Shown here: positions 1,053-26,658 of the stretch, piece by piece
Layout: each line of letters starts with the position of its first letter
How positions within the stretch are numbered: position 1 is the stretch's first letter
NCBI GenBank assembly: GCA_029881255.1
Contig: JAOUMY010000003.1
Span: 26,732 to 58,731, forward strand
Direction of reading: 5' to 3'
Length of the DNA: 32,000 nt
From: Gammaproteobacteria bacterium
GTDB taxonomy: Bacteria; Pseudomonadota; Gammaproteobacteria; S012-40
The notes under the pieces: generated by a model
The model's input: only the letters and a program-made list of their open reading frames with translations
Told to the model about the DNA's origin: nothing
Databases searched by the model: none
Position numbers and translations under genes: made by a program

Positions 1053-1883
1053 ATGAGTGAGCAAGATACCAAAAAGATATTGACGTCAGCGATCTACCGA
1101 GTGTGTCGATCGCTTGTGCGTATCTTGCTGCGTAACGGCATACCCTTCGCAGGGTTTACGGACATCGCCAAGAAAGCCTATGTGGATGTTGCACGCGAGG
1201 AATTCGGTGTTGAAGGCAAGAAGGTTTCAGACTCACGCATTGCCACGATTACGGGGCTAACGCGCAAGGATGTACGACGTGTGAAACTGTTGGATATCCG
1301 CTCAGACACGGAACTTGCCGAACACTATAACCGCGCTGCACGCGTCATATTCGGATGGATACACGACAAGGATTATCAGGACGAAAACGCCAAACCGGTA
1401 CGATTGAAATTTGAAGGAAACAGTCCCTCGTTTAGCGCGCTGACCAAGAAATACAGTGGCGACGTTCCACCCAGAGCAATCTTGGACGAATTGGAACAGG
1501 TAGGCGTAGTCAAGGTGTTAGCCGACGACAGTATCGAAATACTCAAACTCGGTTACATACCTAGCACCAGCCAGGCAGAGAAGCTGAAATTGTTTGGCCG
1601 TGATACTTCCGGGCTGATCGATACCGTAGACCGAAACATTTACAGCGGTGAACAAGCATTTTTTCAACGTAAAGTAAGTTACGACGAATTGCCAGAAGAC
1701 GCGCGAGAAGAAATCCGCGCCATGCTGGAAGTGAAGGGCCAGGAGTTATTGATATATTTTGACGCCATCATGGCAGGTAGAGACGCCAGTCTGAATCCCG
1801 ATCAAAAAGGGAAAAACCACAAGGCTGCTGGTATTGGCATCTACTACTTCGAAGACGATGGCCCAGAGGAACAGGACTCATGA
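1053..1883 (+). CDS. Uncharacterised cytoplasmic protein with an N-terminal HTH-like segment (resembles what I recall as DUF6502)
   Basis: 276-aa ORF with no signal peptide. The segment SDSRIATITGLTRKDVRRV looks like a helix-turn-helix. Its stop overlaps the next gene's start (ATGA at 1880-1883), implying translational coupling. Confidence 0.7.
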   Translation: MSEQDTKKILTSAIYRVCRSLVRILLRNGIPFAGFTDIAKKAYVDVAREEFGVEGKKVSDSRIATITGLTRKDVRRVKLLDIRSDTELAEHYNRAARVIFGWIHDKDYQDENAKPVRLKFEGNSPSFSALTKKYSGDVPPRAILDELEQVGVVKVLADDSIEILKLGYIPSTSQAEKLKLFGRDTSGLIDTVDRNIYSGEQAFFQRKVSYDELPEDAREEIRAMLEVKGQELLIYFDAIMAGRDASLNPDQKGKNHKAAGIGIYYFEDDGPEEQDS

Positions 1884-3334
1884 AACAACAACTGTGGAAA
1901 ACATCGAGCGCTCTGCTGCTCACCCTGTCACTCTTCGCATGTGAAGGTGGCGGCATTACGGGCACAGGTTTTAAAGACCAGGCCGTTGGCGTCATCACCG
2001 GTTTCGGCAGCGTACTTGTCAACGGTATCAAGTTTGAGACCAATAATACCAAGGTGACGATAGACGATATCGAAAACGCCCTGGAAACCGAATTGAAAGT
2101 CGGCATGATAGTCAACATACAAGGCGAGATCGATGAAAACGGCCTCGCAGGATTTGCGAAATCCATTACCTATTCTGACGATGTCGAGGGTACCGTGCTG
2201 GCAAACAATACCTCGGTTGACAACACTCTCAATATTATGGGCCAAACCATTATCGTCAGTCCTGAAACGGTTTTTGGTAGCCAGATCGACACCATTACCA
2301 GAGTAGATGAGATTCAGACAGGAAATATCGTGGAAGTCAGCGGCTTCAATTCTGGTGACGGTTTTATTTACGCCACTCGGGTCGAAGTGAAGAAACTGGC
2401 GCACACTAGTGGAGAAGCGATTGAGGTTTCCGGTTTAATCAAGAGTCTCGATACCCAGGTATTCCTGATTGGCGATATGACGGTAGATTATCGTTCCGCA
2501 GAACTGGTCAATATCCCCAGCAATCAGTTACTCAATGACATGTTTGTTGAAGTGCGCAGCACCGAAGGCATTGATACGGTAAGCAATCGCCTTATCGCCT
2601 CGCGAATCAAACTCGAAGGTGATGGCAAGAAAAAATATCGTCTGGAGAAGGGTCAGGAAATCGAGCTGGAAGGCGTTGTCGCTGACTACAATGCCACTGC
2701 ACAGACTTTTAATCTCAACGGTCAAACCGTGGTGGTAAGCAGCACTACCGAGTTCAAACCCCAGGGTGCCGTGTTACGCGATGGTGCCAAGCTTTCTGTC
2801 AATGGCAGTATCAACGCCAAAGACGAATTGCTTGCCGAGGAGATTGAGATACGCGCCGAGGCCAATCTTAAAGTTCAGGCCTATGTCGAGTGGGTAGATT
2901 CCACTGCACATAGCTTCAAACTGCTCAACAGGACTTTTCTGACCACCAATACCAGCGTGTTCAATGATGAGCGCAACGACGGTTTCGAACCTGTTCGTTA
3001 TATGAATCTGGACCACTTGCGTGAAAATGATTTCGTGGAAGTCAGTGCTTATTATGATGAAGCGGAAGATATCCTGATCGCCACACACATAGAGCGCGAC
3101 GACCCTGAATTCACGCTCAGCAATGCAAGCCAGCAATGGGTGGAAATCAACGGCCTGGTGGCAGAAAACCATTTGCCAGACCTGACTTCAATCAAGATTT
3201 CCGGGATAACCATAGACATCAGTCAAATGTCGGCGGAAGATCAGGCGAATTACATCGTTGGTAAACAGGTTGAGATAATGGGTTACTACGACGAAGTAAC
3301 CCATCTGGTCATCGCCAGCCCGAACGAACCCTGA
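1880..3334 (+). CDS. Lipoprotein built of about six tandem DUF5666-type modules
   Basis: Signal peptide plus lipobox MKQQLWKTSSALLLTLSLFAC|EGGG. Six recognisable repeats of the same ~65-80 aa module as in the truncated gene at 3..995. ATGA overlap with the upstream gene. A strong terminator follows 32 nt downstream. Confidence 0.8.
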   Translation: MKQQLWKTSSALLLTLSLFACEGGGITGTGFKDQAVGVITGFGSVLVNGIKFETNNTKVTIDDIENALETELKVGMIVNIQGEIDENGLAGFAKSITYSDDVEGTVLANNTSVDNTLNIMGQTIIVSPETVFGSQIDTITRVDEIQTGNIVEVSGFNSGDGFIYATRVEVKKLAHTSGEAIEVSGLIKSLDTQVFLIGDMTVDYRSAELVNIPSNQLLNDMFVEVRSTEGIDTVSNRLIASRIKLEGDGKKKYRLEKGQEIELEGVVADYNATAQTFNLNGQTVVVSSTTEFKPQGAVLRDGAKLSVNGSINAKDELLAEEIEIRAEANLKVQAYVEWVDSTAHSFKLLNRTFLTTNTSVFNDERNDGFEPVRYMNLDHLRENDFVEVSAYYDEAEDILIATHIERDDPEFTLSNASQQWVEINGLVAENHLPDLTSIKISGITIDISQMSAEDQANYIVGKQVEIMGYYDEVTHLVIASPNEP

Positions 3335-7851: not shown

Positions 7852-9132
7852 CTAGTTATCATCGTCCCCAGCCAACTCAACACGGTTACGTCCACCACTC
7901 TTCGCGGTATACAATGCATTATCTGCCGTTTGCATCAAATCTTCCACTGTCATGCCCGGACGCATCTGGGCGATACCGAAGCTTCCCGTGACTTTGAATG
8001 TTTTATCATCATCGCTTCGGAACTCCATGCTTTCCCATCTTTTACGGATACGCTCTATCGCGATATAGGCCTTTTCCTGATCGGTATAGGGCAAAATGAC
8101 AAAGAATTCGTCGCCTCCATAACGACCAACCACATCCTCAGTACGCAATCCGTCTCTCACGCAGTTAGCGAATTCGCTGATAATTCGGTCACCAACATGA
8201 TGACCATGCGTATCGTTTACGCCTTTAAACCTGTCGATGTCGCACATGCACACACTCATTTTGTGGCCATGCCGCGACACGGAATGGAACTCCTCATTCA
8301 GACGCAACATCAATGCATGCCGATTATAAATGCCCGTCAGCGCGTCGGTATTGGCCAGAACATTCAGTTTGTCCGTGGACGACTTGATGCTATTGGCCAT
8401 AGCATTTAAGGCACGCATCAAAATCGAGAATTCGTCGTTCCAGTTTTCCTTGAGACTAACCTCGTAATTACCCCCTTCCACATTGCGCGCAAAGTCCAAA
8501 ACCATTTGCAGACGCGTGGAAAAATTGCGTACCAGAATAAAAGACCCTCCACCAAGCAAAGCCGTCATCAGTCCAACCAGTATCAACACCAGTGTCGTGA
8601 CGCGTTGCAGTTCACTCTGACTTTCCTCGAAGGTGTTATGAAATTCCGTCTTTACCTGTTCCTGCATATTGACCAGATACGCTTCGAGTTGGTTACGCAG
8701 TAGCGCTGTCCGGGTAATCTGCGCCGACAGCTGCGACATATCCTTATCCAGCAAATCCAGTGACAGCTTCCCCGCCACGTCGTTATAGTCGTGAAACATC
8801 TGGTGAAAGGTGTTGAGCCCTACAATGTGCTGACTAATCACCTGCATTTCATCAATGGAATGATTGATTTCCTCTGCATATTCCTTCGCCTTTTCCAATG
8901 CACGCTTGTCACCCAGGAGAACGGTTTCCTCAAACGCGTCTTGCAAACCATTCAGATTCGCGGAGATTTTGCTGACATGCTGGGAAAAAGGCATATAGAT
9001 CGTGTTTAAAGATTCGACCCTGTCGGAGACAGATTGACTGGACATAAAAACGGCCAGCATGGAAATAATGAACACCACAAAGATTAGGGCGCTAAAAGTG
9101 GGAATTAACCAAATTTTTCTACGGACTTCCAT
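7852..9132 (-). CDS. Membrane diguanylate cyclase (periplasmic 4-helix-bundle-like sensor, HAMP, GGDEF with I-site)
   Basis: Two TM segments (IWLIPTFSALIFVVFIISMLAVF and LVLILVGLMTALLGGGSFILV). HAMP-like linker. GGDEF domain LTGIYNRHAL...DIDRFKGVNDTHGHHVGD...RYGGDEFFVILP. RxxD I-site (RTED) five residues before GGDEF. Confidence 0.9.
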   Translation of the reverse strand: MEVRRKIWLIPTFSALIFVVFIISMLAVFMSSQSVSDRVESLNTIYMPFSQHVSKISANLNGLQDAFEETVLLGDKRALEKAKEYAEEINHSIDEMQVISQHIVGLNTFHQMFHDYNDVAGKLSLDLLDKDMSQLSAQITRTALLRNQLEAYLVNMQEQVKTEFHNTFEESQSELQRVTTLVLILVGLMTALLGGGSFILVRNFSTRLQMVLDFARNVEGGNYEVSLKENWNDEFSILMRALNAMANSIKSSTDKLNVLANTDALTGIYNRHALMLRLNEEFHSVSRHGHKMSVCMCDIDRFKGVNDTHGHHVGDRIISEFANCVRDGLRTEDVVGRYGGDEFFVILPYTDQEKAYIAIERIRKRWESMEFRSDDDKTFKVTGSFGIAQMRPGMTVEDLMQTADNALYTAKSGGRNRVELAGDDDN

Positions 9133-14569: not shown

Positions 14570-15001
14570 TTAAGACTTATCTCGATTAAAACGGTCGTCC
14601 AGTTCCTTCTGAATACGCCGCTCCTCGGCGCGATTTTCCCCCTGAACCATGCGCTCGACCACCTTATCGACCGCCTTGGTGCGGTGGTGGACGGCCAGCC
14701 ATTGCCGTTTGAGTCGTTCGTTTTCCGCCTCGAACTGCTGGATGATCTGGCGCTGCTGTTCGATCGCGCGGGTGAGGTTATCCATAAACGCCTGATAATC
14801 CCTCAGTTTTCGCGCCGGTATGCCGTTCTGGCCCAGGCTCAGAAACTGTCGCCCGTATTCCTGCTGGTATTGCAACAAATCATCCAGGCGCTTGCGGTGA
14901 TTGGCCAGTTGTGCATTGTGGGCACCAAGCGCCCTTGCCGCCTGATCCTCGCGGAATTCGTTGAGGCGTTGAACCGGCTTCAGTCGTTGGCTACCTTTCA
15001 T
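14570..15001 (-). CDS. fliJ: Flagellar export chaperone/stalk protein FliJ
   Basis: 143-aa coiled-coil protein (QAARALGAHNAQLANHRKRLDDLLQYQQEY...) located directly after fliI. Confidence 0.88.
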   Translation of the reverse strand: MKGSQRLKPVQRLNEFREDQAARALGAHNAQLANHRKRLDDLLQYQQEYGRQFLSLGQNGIPARKLRDYQAFMDNLTRAIEQQRQIIQQFEAENERLKRQWLAVHHRTKAVDKVVERMVQGENRAEERRIQKELDDRFNRDKS

Positions 15002-15014
15002 GGCCTATCCCGAC

Positions 15015-16634
15015 CTAAACGCGAGCCGCAGCCGGCACGGGACCTGGCGCTGCCTGCCGTTGTTGCTGCTTGGCCTCCTGAACCTGCATGGCCTGCAACA
15101 GTAATCCACGGCTGCTGGGAAAATCCACCGGCTCGCCCATGTCCTGGGACAAAAAGGCATTGATCAATGGCTGCATCTTGATTGCCGCGTCCACTGCCGG
15201 ATCGCTGCCCGCACTATAAGCCCCCACGCTGATCAGATCGCGGTTGCGCTCATAATTCGAGTAGTGTTGTTTAAACAGTCGCGCCGCGCGCAAATGGGTC
15301 GGATCGACAATCTCGGTCATGACCCGGCTAATCGACTGTTCGATATCAATGGCCGGATAACGCCCCATCTCGGCAATACTGCGCGACAACACGATGTGGC
15401 CATCGAGTATGGCCCGCGCCGCATCGGCAATCGGGTCTTGCTGGTCGTCACCCTCGGCGAGCACCGTGTAAAAAGCCGTAATCGAGCCGCCACCAACATC
15501 GCCATTGCCGGCGCGCTCTACCAATTGCGGAATCCGCGCGAACACCGATGGCGGATAGCCACGGGTCGCTGGCGGTTCGCCGATGGCCAAAGCAATCTCC
15601 CGTTGCGCCTGGGCATAACGAGTCAACGAATCCATTAGCAGTAATACGTTCTTGCCCTGGTCACGAAAATACTCGGCAATGCGCGTGGCCAATGACGCAC
15701 CGTGCAGACGCAACACCGGGGGCGCATCGGCGGGCGCCGCAACGACGACTGAGCGCGACATTCCCTCTTCGCCCAGGGTGTTATAGATAAACTCTTTTAC
15801 CTCACGCCCACGTTCACCGATCAGGCCGACGACAATTACCTCGGCCTCGGTAAAGCGCGTCATCATCCCGAGCAATACCGATTTGCCCACACCACTACCG
15901 GCAAACAAACCGATACGCTGCCCCTTGCCGACGGTGAGCATAGAGTTGATGGCGCGCACGCCAACATCGAGTGGTTCGCTGATCTGATTGCGCGATAAGG
16001 GGTTGATCGGTCTTCCCTGCATGGGCACATATTCGTCTGCATCCAGAGGCCCGAGACCATCCAACGGACGACCGCGTCCATCGATAACCCGCCCGAGCAG
16101 GCCTTCGCCAACGGGAGCCTCATACGTCTGTCCTGTCGGGACCACCCGCGCGTTGGGCGTGATACCGCGCATGTCTCCGGTAGGCATGAGAAAGAGTTTG
16201 TCCTCGGAAAATCCCACGACTTCGGCCTCGACATTCTTGCCATCGCTATTGGCGACCAGACAACGGGCGCCGATGGGCGCCTGCACGCCGGTAGCCTCCA
16301 GTGTCAGGCCGACAATACGCTTGAGCTTGCCCTCGACGAGCAAAGGCATGGGTTCATCAAGACGCTTTTCATAGACCTGTAGACGCTCGGTCCACTCTGC
16401 ACTACGTGGATGCGGACCTTCCAAACGATATAAACGCGGAATGGGTCGACGGGGTGGAATGGCAGAACGGCCTTCAAGTCGTTCATGGTGAAAATGCAGA
16501 CGATCACGCCACTGACTACTGCGGGGGTGTGGCCTGTCACAGGCCATGGGAAGCGGACCGTCTAAACGCTCCGCATATTTATGTAATCGTTTACTCCAGT
16601 TATGCCGTCTTCGCTTGAGCGGGTCGTCACTCAT
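15015..16634 (-). CDS. fliI: Flagellum-specific ATPase FliI with an unusual ~75-aa N-terminal extension
   Basis: Walker [14 protein letters not shown], Walker [10 protein letters not shown], and [10 protein letters not shown] at the start of the core. The ATG at 16634 overlaps the fliH stop by 8 nt (ATGAGTGA). At 539 aa it is longer than the roughly 440-455 aa I recall for typical FliI. Confidence 0.93.
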
Positions 16635-17373
16635 GATCGCCCTCGCGCTCGCCGCCTAATACTTTGGCGATGGTCGCGGCAAGCTGTGATTCTATAGTGG
16701 CATCAATGCGGGACTCATCGGTTTCCACATTGCAACCGCCTCGCGTTAAGGCTGGGTCTTCGACGATCTTCCAGCGCTGTTCTTCTTCGCTGGCATCGGG
16801 CATGGAAAAACTTTCGCGCACCAGGGCCGCGTCTTCCGGATGTAGATACACACGAACATTGCGGCTGTTAATCGGTAAGATCGCAACAGCTTTGCGTACC
16901 GCTGCAACCACTTGTCCGGGGTCGGTTCGTAATTCACGGCGTACCACATGTTTGGCGATGGCAATCGCCACTGCCACCAATTCTTGTTCAACTTCGTCAT
17001 CAAGCTGTAATAGGGGCGCATCGAAACTCAAAATGAGTTTTCTGACCATATCGAGTTGCGCCATCAATTCGGGCTGCGCATCGCGATAGGCCTGTTCGTG
17101 TCCCTGGTGCCGTCCTTCTTCCACACCGATTGCGTGACCTTCGGCGCGTCCTTCTTCTTTGCCGTGGGCCCGGCCCTCTACCAGTCCCCGTTGAAACGCT
17201 TCGTCATATGCCGTCTTCTGAATCTTTTCCAATTCATCGGCAGTAGGCATTTTCAACTTGGACTTCTTGCTGACATTCACCAGACGCGCGTCGGGTTGTT
17301 CGTCGAACGTTGGCAGATCCCAAACCGCAATCTGCGAAAACGCGTCACTGGGATTTACTTTCTTTATTGGCAT
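16627..17373 (-). CDS. fliH: Flagellar assembly protein FliH
   Basis: The position between fliG and fliI supports the call. So do the glycine-repeat segment [31 protein letters not shown] and the C-terminal FliI-binding-type domain. Confidence 0.88.
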
Positions 17374-23370: not shown

Positions 23371-26300
23371 TCACAAAGGATTTACCGTCAGCGTAAAATT
23401 AGCGCTGTCAGAAAACGAGTTCTTTTCGTCTACGCGGATATATAACGAGCTACCGCTGGAGCTTGCGATACAGGAGTCGTTCCACGTTCCTGCATACGCA
23501 ACATCACAAACCGTACGTGCATAGTTATCGTCGTCGTACACCCAGACATCTACGTCGTCGGTCTGATTCGAAACCTCAATCGAATATAAACCTCCAGCGA
23601 TTAAGCCATCGACGCGATAATATCGGTATTCGTCTTTTACTATCGTGTCATCAAAGGGAGTACTTAGCGATAGCGCTTGTGGAGTTACACTAAATTCGAG
23701 AATTTCCAGGACGAAATCTGAACCCGAATAGCTTATGCTCGCATCGACCACTATATATGCACTTGTACTCTGAGCGACAGCTACACAGTCATCTCCTGTG
23801 CCGAAGTAGTAGGGTTCGCAAAGTACCGAACTATAATCTGCGTCCGAATAGACACTAAGATATGTTCCCGAGTCAGTCATGCTCGCCAAGTTAAAATAGT
23901 AGGCCGTTCCAATTGCAAGACCGGTTACCTCATAATAGACCTTGCCTTTATGGGCGCTGCCAGAAGTATCGGGAAACTCTGACAAATCCATTACAATCGG
24001 ACTTGGGGCCGGTTCTATAGTAATTGAAAATTCACCACCGTTATCGCTGTAGAGCGTGTCAACCAGCAAGAACATCGAACTTCCACTGGCAGTCAAATCG
24101 CACTCGAAATGGGTAAAGCAATAAGTGCCGCTAAACGAACCCTCACTATACAATGAAAGAGAAATCGAAGAAGCCGTCGTATTTGAAATCGTCGCCCTAT
24201 ATGTAACGCCAGAGGATAAACCAGTGATTTCGAACAAACCATAGTTGACACCAATTGAACCGCGCAGCGGAAAATCCTCTGTATCGTATGCAACAACTTG
24301 CGGTGTAACTGCTGTAATCGTTACCGTATCTGTTTGACTACTCAATGTGCCATCGTTGACGATGAGACTAAAAACGTAGTCACCAATGAGGTCTGCTTGA
24401 AATTGGAAATACTTGGCGCCAGGATCGACGATAGTCGCGTTACTACCGGCCGGAGAAGAAATAAGTGTCCAGTTGTAATTCAGCGCGTCATAATTAACAT
24501 CGTAACTCTGATAGCCAAAGACAAAGGGTGAAGAGCCAACTGCTACCGCGTGATCAGCTCCTGCGTATGCGACAGGCGCGACATTTCCGCTACCTGCAGT
24601 AATTATGACAGTATCGACAGCACTATCGGATACTCCATCGTTCACAACTAAATTTATAACATAGCTGCCGTCAACATCAGCTACAAATCCCGACGATACG
24701 CTAGTAGGCGTATCAAGCAAACTAAGACCACTTGTCGCAGGTACTGAATTTATAGACCAGGAGTAACTCAGGTTGTCTCCGTTATTATCCTTGCTAGCGA
24801 CCCCTGAAAGCTCGACATATGAACCGCTTAAAACCGTTTGATCACGACCAGCGTCAGCAACTGGAGGTACATTTTGCGCGGCAGTAATCACTACTTGGCT
24901 TAATAGACTCGTCAGCACCCCGTCGCTTACCGATAACGATATTACATAGCTTCCATCTACATCGGGAGTAAAACTAGGAATCCTCGAAAGTGGTTCATTC
25001 AGCATACTTAGTGTGCTTCCAGTAGGCACAGAAACGATATTCCAGGAATAAGTAGATATAGAACCATCCTTGTCTGTACTTAGTGATCCGTCGAGACCAA
25101 CCAGGGATCCGGTTAAGACAGATCTATCATATCCCGCATGTGCAACAGGCGGCATATTTGCGCCCGCACTAATAGTTACCGTGGCTGGGCTACTACTAAA
25201 ATATCCATCGTTCACCACCAGTGATATCACATAGTATCCTTCAACATCTGCAACGAAAGTTGGATTAACAACAGTAGGATCAGACAATGCCGTAACACTG
25301 CTTCCGACCGGTACAGACACAATCGACCACAGGTAAGTAATTGGAGAACCGTCTGGGTCGATGCTTAAGCTAGCATTGAGATAAGCCGCATTTCCGACGA
25401 TTAACGATCGTCTAGGACCTGCGTGCGCATTCGGCGGACTATTAGGTGCACCGGCCGTAATCGTTACAGTTGAACTGCTACTTTGTAACTGTCCATCGCT
25501 AACGACCAAGGAAAAAACATAGTCTCCATCCACGTCGGCCGTAAAGCTTGGGGAAACGACGCTGTTGCTCGACAGAGTCGAAATACTGCCTGTTGGAAGC
25601 GATACTGTCGTCCAAGTGTACGAGAGAAGTTGTCCATTGGGATCATAACTTGCACTTCCATCCAGCGTCACCACGCTTCCAGTGGTAACATATTTTGAGC
25701 TTCCCGCACTGGAAACCGGCGGCGCATCAACCGCCGCAAGTACTGATACTGTCGCTGGGCTGCTGTTGTCCGTACCATCATTAACAGTGAGTGAGAAAAT
25801 ATATGTGCCTTCAACATCTGGGGTAAAACTCGGACTAACTGTAGCGGCATTGTTCAATGAAATCACGTTACTGGAAGCAGGTACGGAGACCACGTACCAG
25901 CTATACGTTATGAAGTCGTTGTTTGCATCCGAGCTAGCGCTACCGTCCAGTGTAACTAGCCTACCCAGGATTGCAGTTTGGTTTTCTCCTGCGTGGGCAA
26001 TCGGGACAGCCTGGAATGCGACTGATACTAAAACCTCGTCAGCGGCGCTTTCAAGGTTTCCGTCGTTCACCACCAATGTTGCGCGATACACACCAACTAC
26101 ATCGGCAACGAAACTAGGTCTCGCAGCCGTAGCGTCAGATAAACTTGCGGAACTTCCGTCTGGCGCGACCAACGTCCAAAGATAAGTGAGCATGTCACTA
26201 TCAAAATCCGAACTAAGAGACCCGTCGAGCGTAACCTTATCACCGGGTTTTGCTGACGAATCTCTACCCGCGTTTGCAACAGGAGCAGAATTTTTTGTAC

Positions 26301-26658
26301 TTGCTACAATCACCACTTCATCGTCAGCAAACTTATCAAGTTCATCGTGCACGACGAGGGAAACTCGATATACACCATCCAAGTCTGCAATAAATGAGGG
26401 CGCAACAGTGGTCGGATTCGATAAAGTTGCCGCGCTGTTTTCTGGAACGTCAACAAATTTCCAGCTATAGGTAATACGACTTCCCTCTGGATCCACGCTC
26501 AAGCTACCATCAAGCTTAACAAGCGATCCGGTAGCAATATTTTGATCCGTACCGGCATGGACGACAGGAGCCTGATTATCAAGTGGGAATTCATTTAAGC
26601 AAGAGGAAAGTAGAAGAATAGGCGAGATAGTGATCAGCTTTGGAAAATAAAAACGCAT
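23371..26658 (-). CDS. Large surface lipoprotein: 8 tandem PKD-like Ig domains followed by 3 PPC-like (pre-peptidase C-terminal type) domains
   Basis: Signal peptide with lipobox-like ILLLSSC (Cys20). Eight ~95-aa repeats follow the pattern (N)xAPVAxAGxDxxVxxGSxVxLDGSxSxDxxGxxLxYxWxxVSxPxGSxxxLSxxTxxxPxFxADVxGxYVxxLVVxDG. Three ~100-aa C-terminal domains follow, each with a conserved Cys pair (TYCFTHFEC, VLCEPYYFGTGDDC, TVCDVAYAGTWNDSC). RBS AGAGGAAAG. Confidence 0.85.
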   Translation of the reverse strand: MRFYFPKLITISPILLLSSCLNEFPLDNQAPVVHAGTDQNIATGSLVKLDGSLSVDPEGSRITYSWKFVDVPENSAATLSNPTTVAPSFIADLDGVYRVSLVVHDELDKFADDEVVIVASTKNSAPVANAGRDSSAKPGDKVTLDGSLSSDFDSDMLTYLWTLVAPDGSSASLSDATAARPSFVADVVGVYRATLVVNDGNLESAADEVLVSVAFQAVPIAHAGENQTAILGRLVTLDGSASSDANNDFITYSWYVVSVPASSNVISLNNAATVSPSFTPDVEGTYIFSLTVNDGTDNSSPATVSVLAAVDAPPVSSAGSSKYVTTGSVVTLDGSASYDPNGQLLSYTWTTVSLPTGSISTLSSNSVVSPSFTADVDGDYVFSLVVSDGQLQSSSSTVTITAGAPNSPPNAHAGPRRSLIVGNAAYLNASLSIDPDGSPITYLWSIVSVPVGSSVTALSDPTVVNPTFVADVEGYYVISLVVNDGYFSSSPATVTISAGANMPPVAHAGYDRSVLTGSLVGLDGSLSTDKDGSISTYSWNIVSVPTGSTLSMLNEPLSRIPSFTPDVDGSYVISLSVSDGVLTSLLSQVVITAAQNVPPVADAGRDQTVLSGSYVELSGVASKDNNGDNLSYSWSINSVPATSGLSLLDTPTSVSSGFVADVDGSYVINLVVNDGVSDSAVDTVIITAGSGNVAPVAYAGADHAVAVGSSPFVFGYQSYDVNYDALNYNWTLISSPAGSNATIVDPGAKYFQFQADLIGDYVFSLIVNDGTLSSQTDTVTITAVTPQVVAYDTEDFPLRGSIGVNYGLFEITGLSSGVTYRATISNTTASSISLSLYSEGSFSGTYCFTHFECDLTASGSSMFLLVDTLYSDNGGEFSITIEPAPSPIVMDLSEFPDTSGSAHKGKVYYEVTGLAIGTAYYFNLASMTDSGTYLSVYSDADYSSVLCEPYYFGTGDDCVAVAQSTSAYIVVDASISYSGSDFVLEILEFSVTPQALSLSTPFDDTIVKDEYRYYRVDGLIAGGLYSIEVSNQTDDVDVWVYDDDNYARTVCDVAYAGTWNDSCIASSSGSSLYIRVDEKNSFSDSANFTLTVNPL
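24298..26574 (-). repeat. Tandem array of 8 diverged ~285-nt coding repeats (PKD-like domains)
   Basis: The repeats start at about aa 29, 123, 215, 310, 404, 500, 595 and 690 of the 1095-aa protein. They are diverged at the DNA level and are protein-domain repeats, not CRISPR or satellite. Confidence 0.8.

Follow-up and report, generated by a model that had tools for sequence, protein, structure and literature searches.

How many FliH-docking helices can one flagellar export ATPase carry? The question is raised by the FliI encoded in a 32,000-nucleotide stretch (hereafter the window) of contig JAOUMY010000003.1 from a gammaproteobacterial metagenome-assembled genome (MAG). To our knowledge, characterised flagellar and injectisome systems have a single helix on each ATPase subunit, and of the two C-terminal domains of a FliH dimer only one grips it. 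In the window FliI the conserved core begins only at residue 100, compared with about residue 25-38 in homologues, so that the N-terminal extension adds about 68 residues. A preliminary description of this DNA had put its length at about 75 residues and had read it as translated sequence made of extra copies of the FliH-binding helix. We find that this reading holds, on the evidence of family profile matches, purifying selection on the copies and a start codon that overlaps the preceding gene.

For an assessment independent of any motif chosen post hoc, we used a family profile hidden Markov model (HMM) of the 25 residues before the conserved core in 118 other FliI proteins, with the window protein left out, and scanned the first 110 residues of the window FliI. 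The profile matched four times, at residues 8-29 (copy 1), 38-55 (copy 2), 69-76 (a truncated unit) and 77-98 (copy 3). Measured against the homologues' own helices, which score 26.4 +/- 6.1 bits, copies 1 and 3 are family helices of ordinary quality, while copy 2 falls about two standard deviations low. Shuffling residues 1-76 with their composition kept gave a best score of 9.5 bits; none of the 2000 shuffles reached the 13.8 bits of copy 2, and copies 1 and 2 both outscored all of them, so the repeats are more than chance. No comparable profile match was found outside fliI in the six-frame open reading frames (ORFs) of the whole window.

The regular expression W..RL.....RL[DE][GE], which represents the motif that had first drawn attention to the extension, matches at W13, W42 and W81, the same three copies that the profile recovers independently. 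PHPRS stands ahead of the last two, at residues 35 and 74, as had been reported. The original count of three copies is thus borne out, with the amendment that a truncated fourth unit is also present and that copy 2 is clearly degenerate. At the ten best-conserved positions of the family (R-4, W, R+3, L+4, Y+7, R+10, L/I+11, E+13, P+14 and P+16), which correspond to a docking-helix unit of the pattern R-x3-W-x2-R-L-x2-Y-x2-R-L-x-E-P-x-P, copy 3 keeps all ten residues, copy 1 nine and copy 2 six or seven. Copy 2 lacks the E-P-x-P tail and has His for Tyr at +7.

The helix nearest the core corresponds to a structurally characterised element. In Salmonella FliI, residues 2-21 form the extreme-N-terminal helix (FliI_EN) that is bound by one FliH C-terminal domain (FliH_C), and the dimer's other FliH_C touches a basic patch formed by R26, R27, R30, R33, R76 and R93 (PMC9114704, PMC8041783). 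With the barrel, this second FliH_C has no more than an electrostatic contact, which is dispensable (PMC8041783). Residues 79-508 of the window FliI align to residues 6-445 of Salmonella FliI (chain A of PDB 5B0O, the FliH_C2-FliI complex; HMMER), without gaps over the N-terminus. The third copy had been equated with the extreme N-terminus of ordinary FliI, and it does align with residues 6-21 of that chain, matching residue for residue (W81 = W8, L85 = L12, Y88 = F15, L92 = M19). It also lies directly ahead of the beta-barrel, as in Salmonella, and the fliH-fliI-fliJ module and the architecture of FliH are alike. Judged by this alignment, copy 3 is unambiguously the FliI_EN helix. Of the six basic-patch positions, four keep a basic residue (K103, R106, K146 and R163); R26 and R27 are replaced by L99 and V100, as in the whole clade, where V100 is nearly invariant among 71 aligned sequences.

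Translation of fliI starts at the fliH-coupled ATG at 16634. As previously described, this ATG overlaps the fliH stop codon (TGA, 16627-16629) by 8 nt (ATGAGTGA). It is the only candidate start upstream of the core that bears a Shine-Dalgarno (SD) sequence, with an anti-SD duplex that compares with a mean of -4.0 kcal/mol at the other gene starts in the window (Table 1). The alternative in-frame starts ahead of the core are M30 (ATG, -2.7 kcal/mol), L71 (TTG, +1.2), M96 (ATG, -0.1) and L98 (TTG, +0.4), none of which has an SD; the earlier statement that no SD-backed start lies near residues 70-80 is therefore correct. Upstream of M1, seven codons separate the ATG from an in-frame stop, and none of the seven is ATG, GTG or TTG. 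The fliI frame is free of stops over 96 codons, and the other five frames contain 1-13 stops each.

The position of this start is shared with related loci, in which an overlap of 3-15 nt between the fliH stop and the fliI start is usual. The stop of fliH lies 289 nt from the FliI core in the window, compared with 58-92 nt in most related loci. The locus of the nearest relative (L081, encoding the FliI protein P0017) has an identical 8-nt overlap (ATGGATGA), followed by 178 nt to the core. A conserved overlapped start combined with a longer distance to the core means that the insertion lies inside the coding region, downstream of the start. On this comparison of sequences, the extension is translated and its overlapped start is the family norm. 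Farther downstream, a strong SD-like GGAGG (-9.3 kcal/mol; window 16286-16300) precedes codon 117 of fliI, an in-frame GTG; as it falls in the conserved stretch that codes for GLTLEATG, it probably reflects the protein sequence and does not mark an internal start.

How old are the copies? They had been described as diverged at the DNA level, and Tandem Repeats Finder (TRF) indeed detected no DNA-level tandem repeat at a score of at least 30. The nucleotide identity between copies is 46-54%, and the proportion of differing synonymous sites (pS) is 0.83-0.96, which is saturation, with a proportion of differing non-synonymous sites (pN) of 0.30-0.45. Together these values rule out a recent slippage-type tandem repeat. 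Four of the five PHPRS codons differ between copies 2 and 3, all synonymously, and the three copies use TTA, CTG and CTA, respectively, for the conserved Leu+4. Synonymous saturation with the motif kept implies that selection acted on the peptide. We also evolved copy 3 neutrally in silico over the observed divergence (Jukes-Cantor d = 0.82); among 2000 descendants, none scored at least 24.6 bits on the family profile and 0.05% scored at least 13.8 bits, which means that untranslated DNA could not have retained copy 1. As far as these substitution patterns can tell, the extra copies are old and under purifying selection.

The sole DNA-level trace of duplication is a 20-nt direct repeat, 85% identical and in the same frame, at 16408-16427 and 16549-16568. 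It encodes RLEGPHP in the truncated unit and RLDGPLP at the end of copy 1, and so ties the truncated unit to copy 1. Between the window and its nearest known relative, the synonymous divergence (dS) is about 2.0 and the non-synonymous divergence (dN) 0.146. As this split is itself saturated, the duplications could date to any time after it and would appear no younger than observed.

An AlphaFold2 (AF2) model was computed from the 71-sequence alignment, in which no homologue covers the extension. The core is predicted confidently, with a mean predicted local distance difference test (pLDDT) score of 86.7. Helices are predicted at residues 5-24, corresponding to copy 1 (block-mean pLDDT about 59-68), and at residues 77-93, corresponding to copy 3 (block means rising from about 69 to 93). 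Residues 25-71 are predicted to be disordered (pLDDT <50), and copy 2 has no predicted helix. The model therefore suggests two helices with a flexible, Pro/Arg/His-rich tether between them, about 55 residues long, in which the decaying copy 2 lies. Hydrophobic moments are 0.65 for copy 1, 0.22 for copy 2 and 0.37 for copy 3, and 0.31 for the Salmonella helix.

Whether the extension is specific to a clade, a point that the preliminary description proposed to settle by aligning FliI orthologues, was assessed in the 119 nearest FliI homologues (68-82% identity) and in 81 related loci, comprising the best 80 from GTDB representative genomes and L081. A second profile match of at least 5 bits occurred in none of the 119 proteins, and two matches of at least 8 bits in none of the 81 loci. 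Salmonella FliI and all 119 homologues thus have one helix, whereas the window FliI has three and a stub on flexible linkers. The related single-helix proteins come from Ectothiorhodospiraceae/Chromatiales-like MAGs, Sulfurivermis and Thiohalobacter. They have the same core, the same overlap of fliH stop and fliI start, and the shared motif RsxxWxxRLxxYxxRLxEPxPL followed by VEGKLTRMVGLT, but only 25-38 residues before the core, compared with 99 in the window FliI.

P0017, from JGI metagenome 3300022221, is 82% identical to the window FliI and has an insertion in the corresponding position, after the start and before the helix. Unlike that of the window, this insertion (L081:2776-2880) is a non-repetitive, acidic segment of 35 residues (MDEPADTLESNQAATDSPIDGSTDNVGLVPPGTEPD), ahead of a single helix scoring 30.4 bits. 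In-frame GTG codons at V26 and V29 of P0017 are possible alternative starts. On the other side of the junction, the locus L001, from an uncultured Ectothiorhodospiraceae MAG, encodes a FliH of 312 residues (fliH 2052-2990) in which the conserved GGxREGD end is followed by a terminal run of about eight tandem pentapeptides, VPETK/VQEAE (2812-2955; TRF period 15, 7.8 copies, 91% matches). Taken together, the window, L081 and L001 sequences make the fliH-3'/fliI-5' junction look like an insertion hot spot in this clade.

Broader searches gave no second example. A word-indexed search with residues 1-169 returned 13 matches, all to the core part only. No relative of the extension turned up in an exhaustive HMMER search with residues 1-100 against 1.84 billion representatives, although at 50% identity a variant FliI would be clustered under an ordinary representative and so be missed. 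The only match of that search, a tetratricopeptide repeat (TPR) protein, was rejected as a spurious W-x-KAL repeat. A scan of JGI metagenomes with six extension peptides also found no relative. Three Rhodocyclales loci (L040, L051 and L074) with long tblastn matches to the extension were discarded, being open high-GC frames without the helix motif. A synthetic two-helix profile separated the window FliI (55 bits) from single-helix FliI proteins (at most 36 bits) in a local comparison; used in a database search, it returned 87 candidates but missed the positive control, and that search is no evidence of absence. A literature search on FliI N-terminal extensions returned nothing relevant. We did not find a second example and do not claim that the extension is absent elsewhere. 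Among the JGI metagenome proteins, a FliI of 620 residues (P0020) has about 100 residues of the catalytic domain duplicated internally (ILDGHVVLSRALAE twice), which may be an assembly artefact or real.

The protein that carries the extension is, by its domains and alignments, an unambiguous FliI. The ORF of 539 residues proposed earlier corresponds exactly to NCBI entry MDH5545449.1, from a Gammaproteobacteria bacterium MAG contig of 459,864 bp, which is a singleton at 90% clustering. It comprises an N-terminal beta-barrel (ATP-synt_ab_N, PF02874, residues 106-168), a nucleotide-binding domain (ATP-synt_ab, PF00006, residues 225-436, E-value of 8.7e-87) and a T3SS ATPase C-terminal domain (T3SS_ATPase_C, PF18269, residues 443-512), and it matches Salmonella FliI (5B0O_A) with an E-value of 2e-164 (HMMER). 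Its GSGVGKS aligns with the Salmonella Walker A motif, in which G246, G248, G250, K251 and S252 are invariant, and S247 nearly so, in the 71-sequence alignment. Pfam searches on neighbouring ORFs showed an intact fliF-fliG-fliH-fliI-fliJ-fliK order, preceded by a two-component/sigma-54 regulator pair. FliH, the presumed binding partner, is of ordinary length and architecture, and is 57% identical over its full length, with a single one-residue gap, to the FliH of the nearest relative. Rfam, promoter and terminator scans gave no feature in or around the extension.

Table 1. Coordinates of fliI, its N-terminal units, its start region and the adjoining genes of the ATPase module in the window.
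Feature	Position in window	Strand	Basis
fliI, flagellar type III export ATPase, 539 aa	15015..16634	-	Pfam domains; NCBI MDH5545449.1
Lineage-specific N-terminal extension, aa 1-76, ahead of canonical helix	16407..16634	-	fliH stop-to-core distance; open frame
Copy 1, FliH-docking helix unit, aa 8-29	16548..16613	-	24.6 bits, family N-terminus profile
Copy 2, degenerate, aa 38-55, PHP ahead of copy	16470..16523	-	13.8 bits, family profile
Truncated fourth unit (stub), aa 67-76	16407..16436	-	partial match aa 69-76, -0.7 bits, C-terminal end of profile (RLEGPHP)
Copy 3, canonical extreme-N-terminal FliI helix, aa 77-98	16341..16406	-	25.4 bits, family profile
fliI start ATG, 8-nt overlap with fliH stop	16632..16634	-	fliH stop TGA 16627-16629
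SD-like GAGGG, 5 nt 5' of ATG	16640..16644	-	anti-SD duplex -6.4 kcal/mol
fliH, presumed FliI binding partner, 248 aa	16627..17373	-	Pfam FliH aa 106-232, E-value 2.5e-36
fliJ, downstream member of fliH-fliI-fliJ ATPase module	14570..15001	-	Pfam FliJ, E-value 1.3e-24

Beyond the genes of Table 1, a protein of 1095 residues with about eight PKD/K319L-like repeats (23371-26658) adjoins the flagellar cluster, and a DUF6502 and DUF5666 gene pair lies farther off (1053-3334). A GGDEF-HAMP protein is encoded at 7852-9132.

What might the additional helices do? The explanation that we favour is that old internal tandem duplications of the unit encoding the extreme-N-terminal FliH-docking helix gave rise to a translated extension of FliI. 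The outcome would be a canonical copy 3 by the beta-barrel, a full-quality copy 1 at the new N-terminus, a decaying middle copy and a stub, with Pro/Arg/His-rich disordered linkers joining the helix copies. Copy 1, at least, would then bind a FliH C-terminal domain and make FliI multivalent for FliH. Either both C-domains of one FliH dimer could each grip a helix, or a second FliH dimer could be recruited on the flexible tether of about 55 residues. Both arrangements would strengthen or re-scale either the ATPase's hold on FliN and the C ring or FliH's restraint on premature FliI ring formation. The anatomy of the extension and its translation we hold with high confidence. For FliH binding by copy 1, we put the chances at even or slightly better; FliH_C is its most likely partner because it keeps the family-conserved residues of the FliH-binding helix. 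Taken as a whole, multivalency included, the explanation seems to us to have a little more than an even chance of being right. The specific proposal that one FliI subunit binds more FliH C-domains than in the canonical FliH2:FliI1 complex, through a second and perhaps a third tethered functional helix, is doubtful. FliI and the copy 3 helix are themselves known, and the new element is the presence of several FliH-docking helices on one chain. We know of no tandem-helix ATPase subunit. In the F1-ATPase alpha-subunit N-terminal helix/delta-OSCP and injectisome SctN-SctL systems, each of several subunits contributes a single helix to the valency, whereas here one chain carries several helices.

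Several observations weigh against this explanation. Copy 2 and the stub are decaying, so that not every copy is needed, and a single MAG is the only known source of the extension. The AF2 model of this segment is of low confidence (block means <70), as homologues give no coverage there. Within the extension, a codon-usage model favours the fliI frame only weakly (log-likelihood difference of 8.1, 1st percentile of real-gene windows). The GC content at third codon positions (GC3) is 0.43 in the extension (16347-16634) and 0.67 over the remainder of fliI, a 5'-end drop that ranks among the two largest of the window genes. The unusual Arg/His/Pro/Trp-rich composition, with seven His in the first 96 residues (16347-16634), contributes to the weak codon signal. 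In Salmonella, full FliH-dimer binding also uses the barrel surface (PMC9114704, PMC8041783), which tethered extra helices lack. The decay, the atypical codon usage with low GC3 and the occurrence in a single known genome would also suit an extension that is translated but inert, in which only copy 3 works and the extra helices are left over from slippage or duplication at the fliI 5' end and tolerated. The different, non-repeat 35-residue extension at the same place in the nearest relative likewise suggests an insertion-tolerant junction. We nevertheless regard inertness as rather unlikely, since copy 1 scores within the range of the homologues despite saturated synonymous divergence, a level to which no neutrally simulated descendant held.

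The extra helices could also act in cis, as decoys that rival copy 3 for FliH_C or as regulators of FliI hexamerisation, and so tune FliH release for ring assembly. This idea draws on Salmonella, in which the extreme N-terminus regulates FliI oligomerisation and FliH bound to its helix restrains ring formation and ATPase activity (PMC9114704, PMC8041783), and a long disordered linker, as modelled here, would permit intramolecular helix exchange. The same evidence fits simple multivalency, however, and a copy identical to the true site would not obviously lower occupancy unless FliH were limiting; we consider a decoy fairly improbable. Initiation at an internal codon would remove the extension altogether: a start at, for example, the TTG of codon 71 would give a FliI of ordinary length (469 residues) and would make 16425-16634 an untranslated fliH-fliI spacer, or there may be long and short isoforms. 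TTG71 does lie ten residues before W81, a distance typical of homologues, and the weak coding statistics agree with such a start. Yet no SD accompanies TTG71, M30, M96 or L98, the coupled ATG is conserved in position with relatives, and an open frame of 96 codons with two further profile-matching helices under purifying selection would be inexplicable in non-coding DNA, all of which makes an internal start highly improbable. An assembly or binning artefact, which a singleton protein cluster from a single MAG contig might suggest, we regard as having a negligible chance. The copies form no DNA-level tandem repeat, their low identity means that an assembler could not have made them by collapsing or expanding reads, and synteny from fliF to fliK is intact on a long contig.

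There is as yet only a partial understanding of the asymmetry of the FliH-FliI complex and of how FliH holds back premature FliI ring formation. Although the reach of our findings is limited to a single uncultured genome and a function proposed from sequence, a second full-quality docking helix that has long been under selection suggests that valency at the FliH-FliI interface is naturally tunable. The window FliI may also serve as a natural source of one-, two- and three-helix forms for studying the number of FliH molecules per ATPase. If extra FliH is bound per FliI, the FliH spokes between the ATPase ring and the C ring would differ in stoichiometry or geometry. This FliI would then lend itself readily to studying the reason for the asymmetry of the canonical complex and the control of FliI ring assembly by FliH valency.

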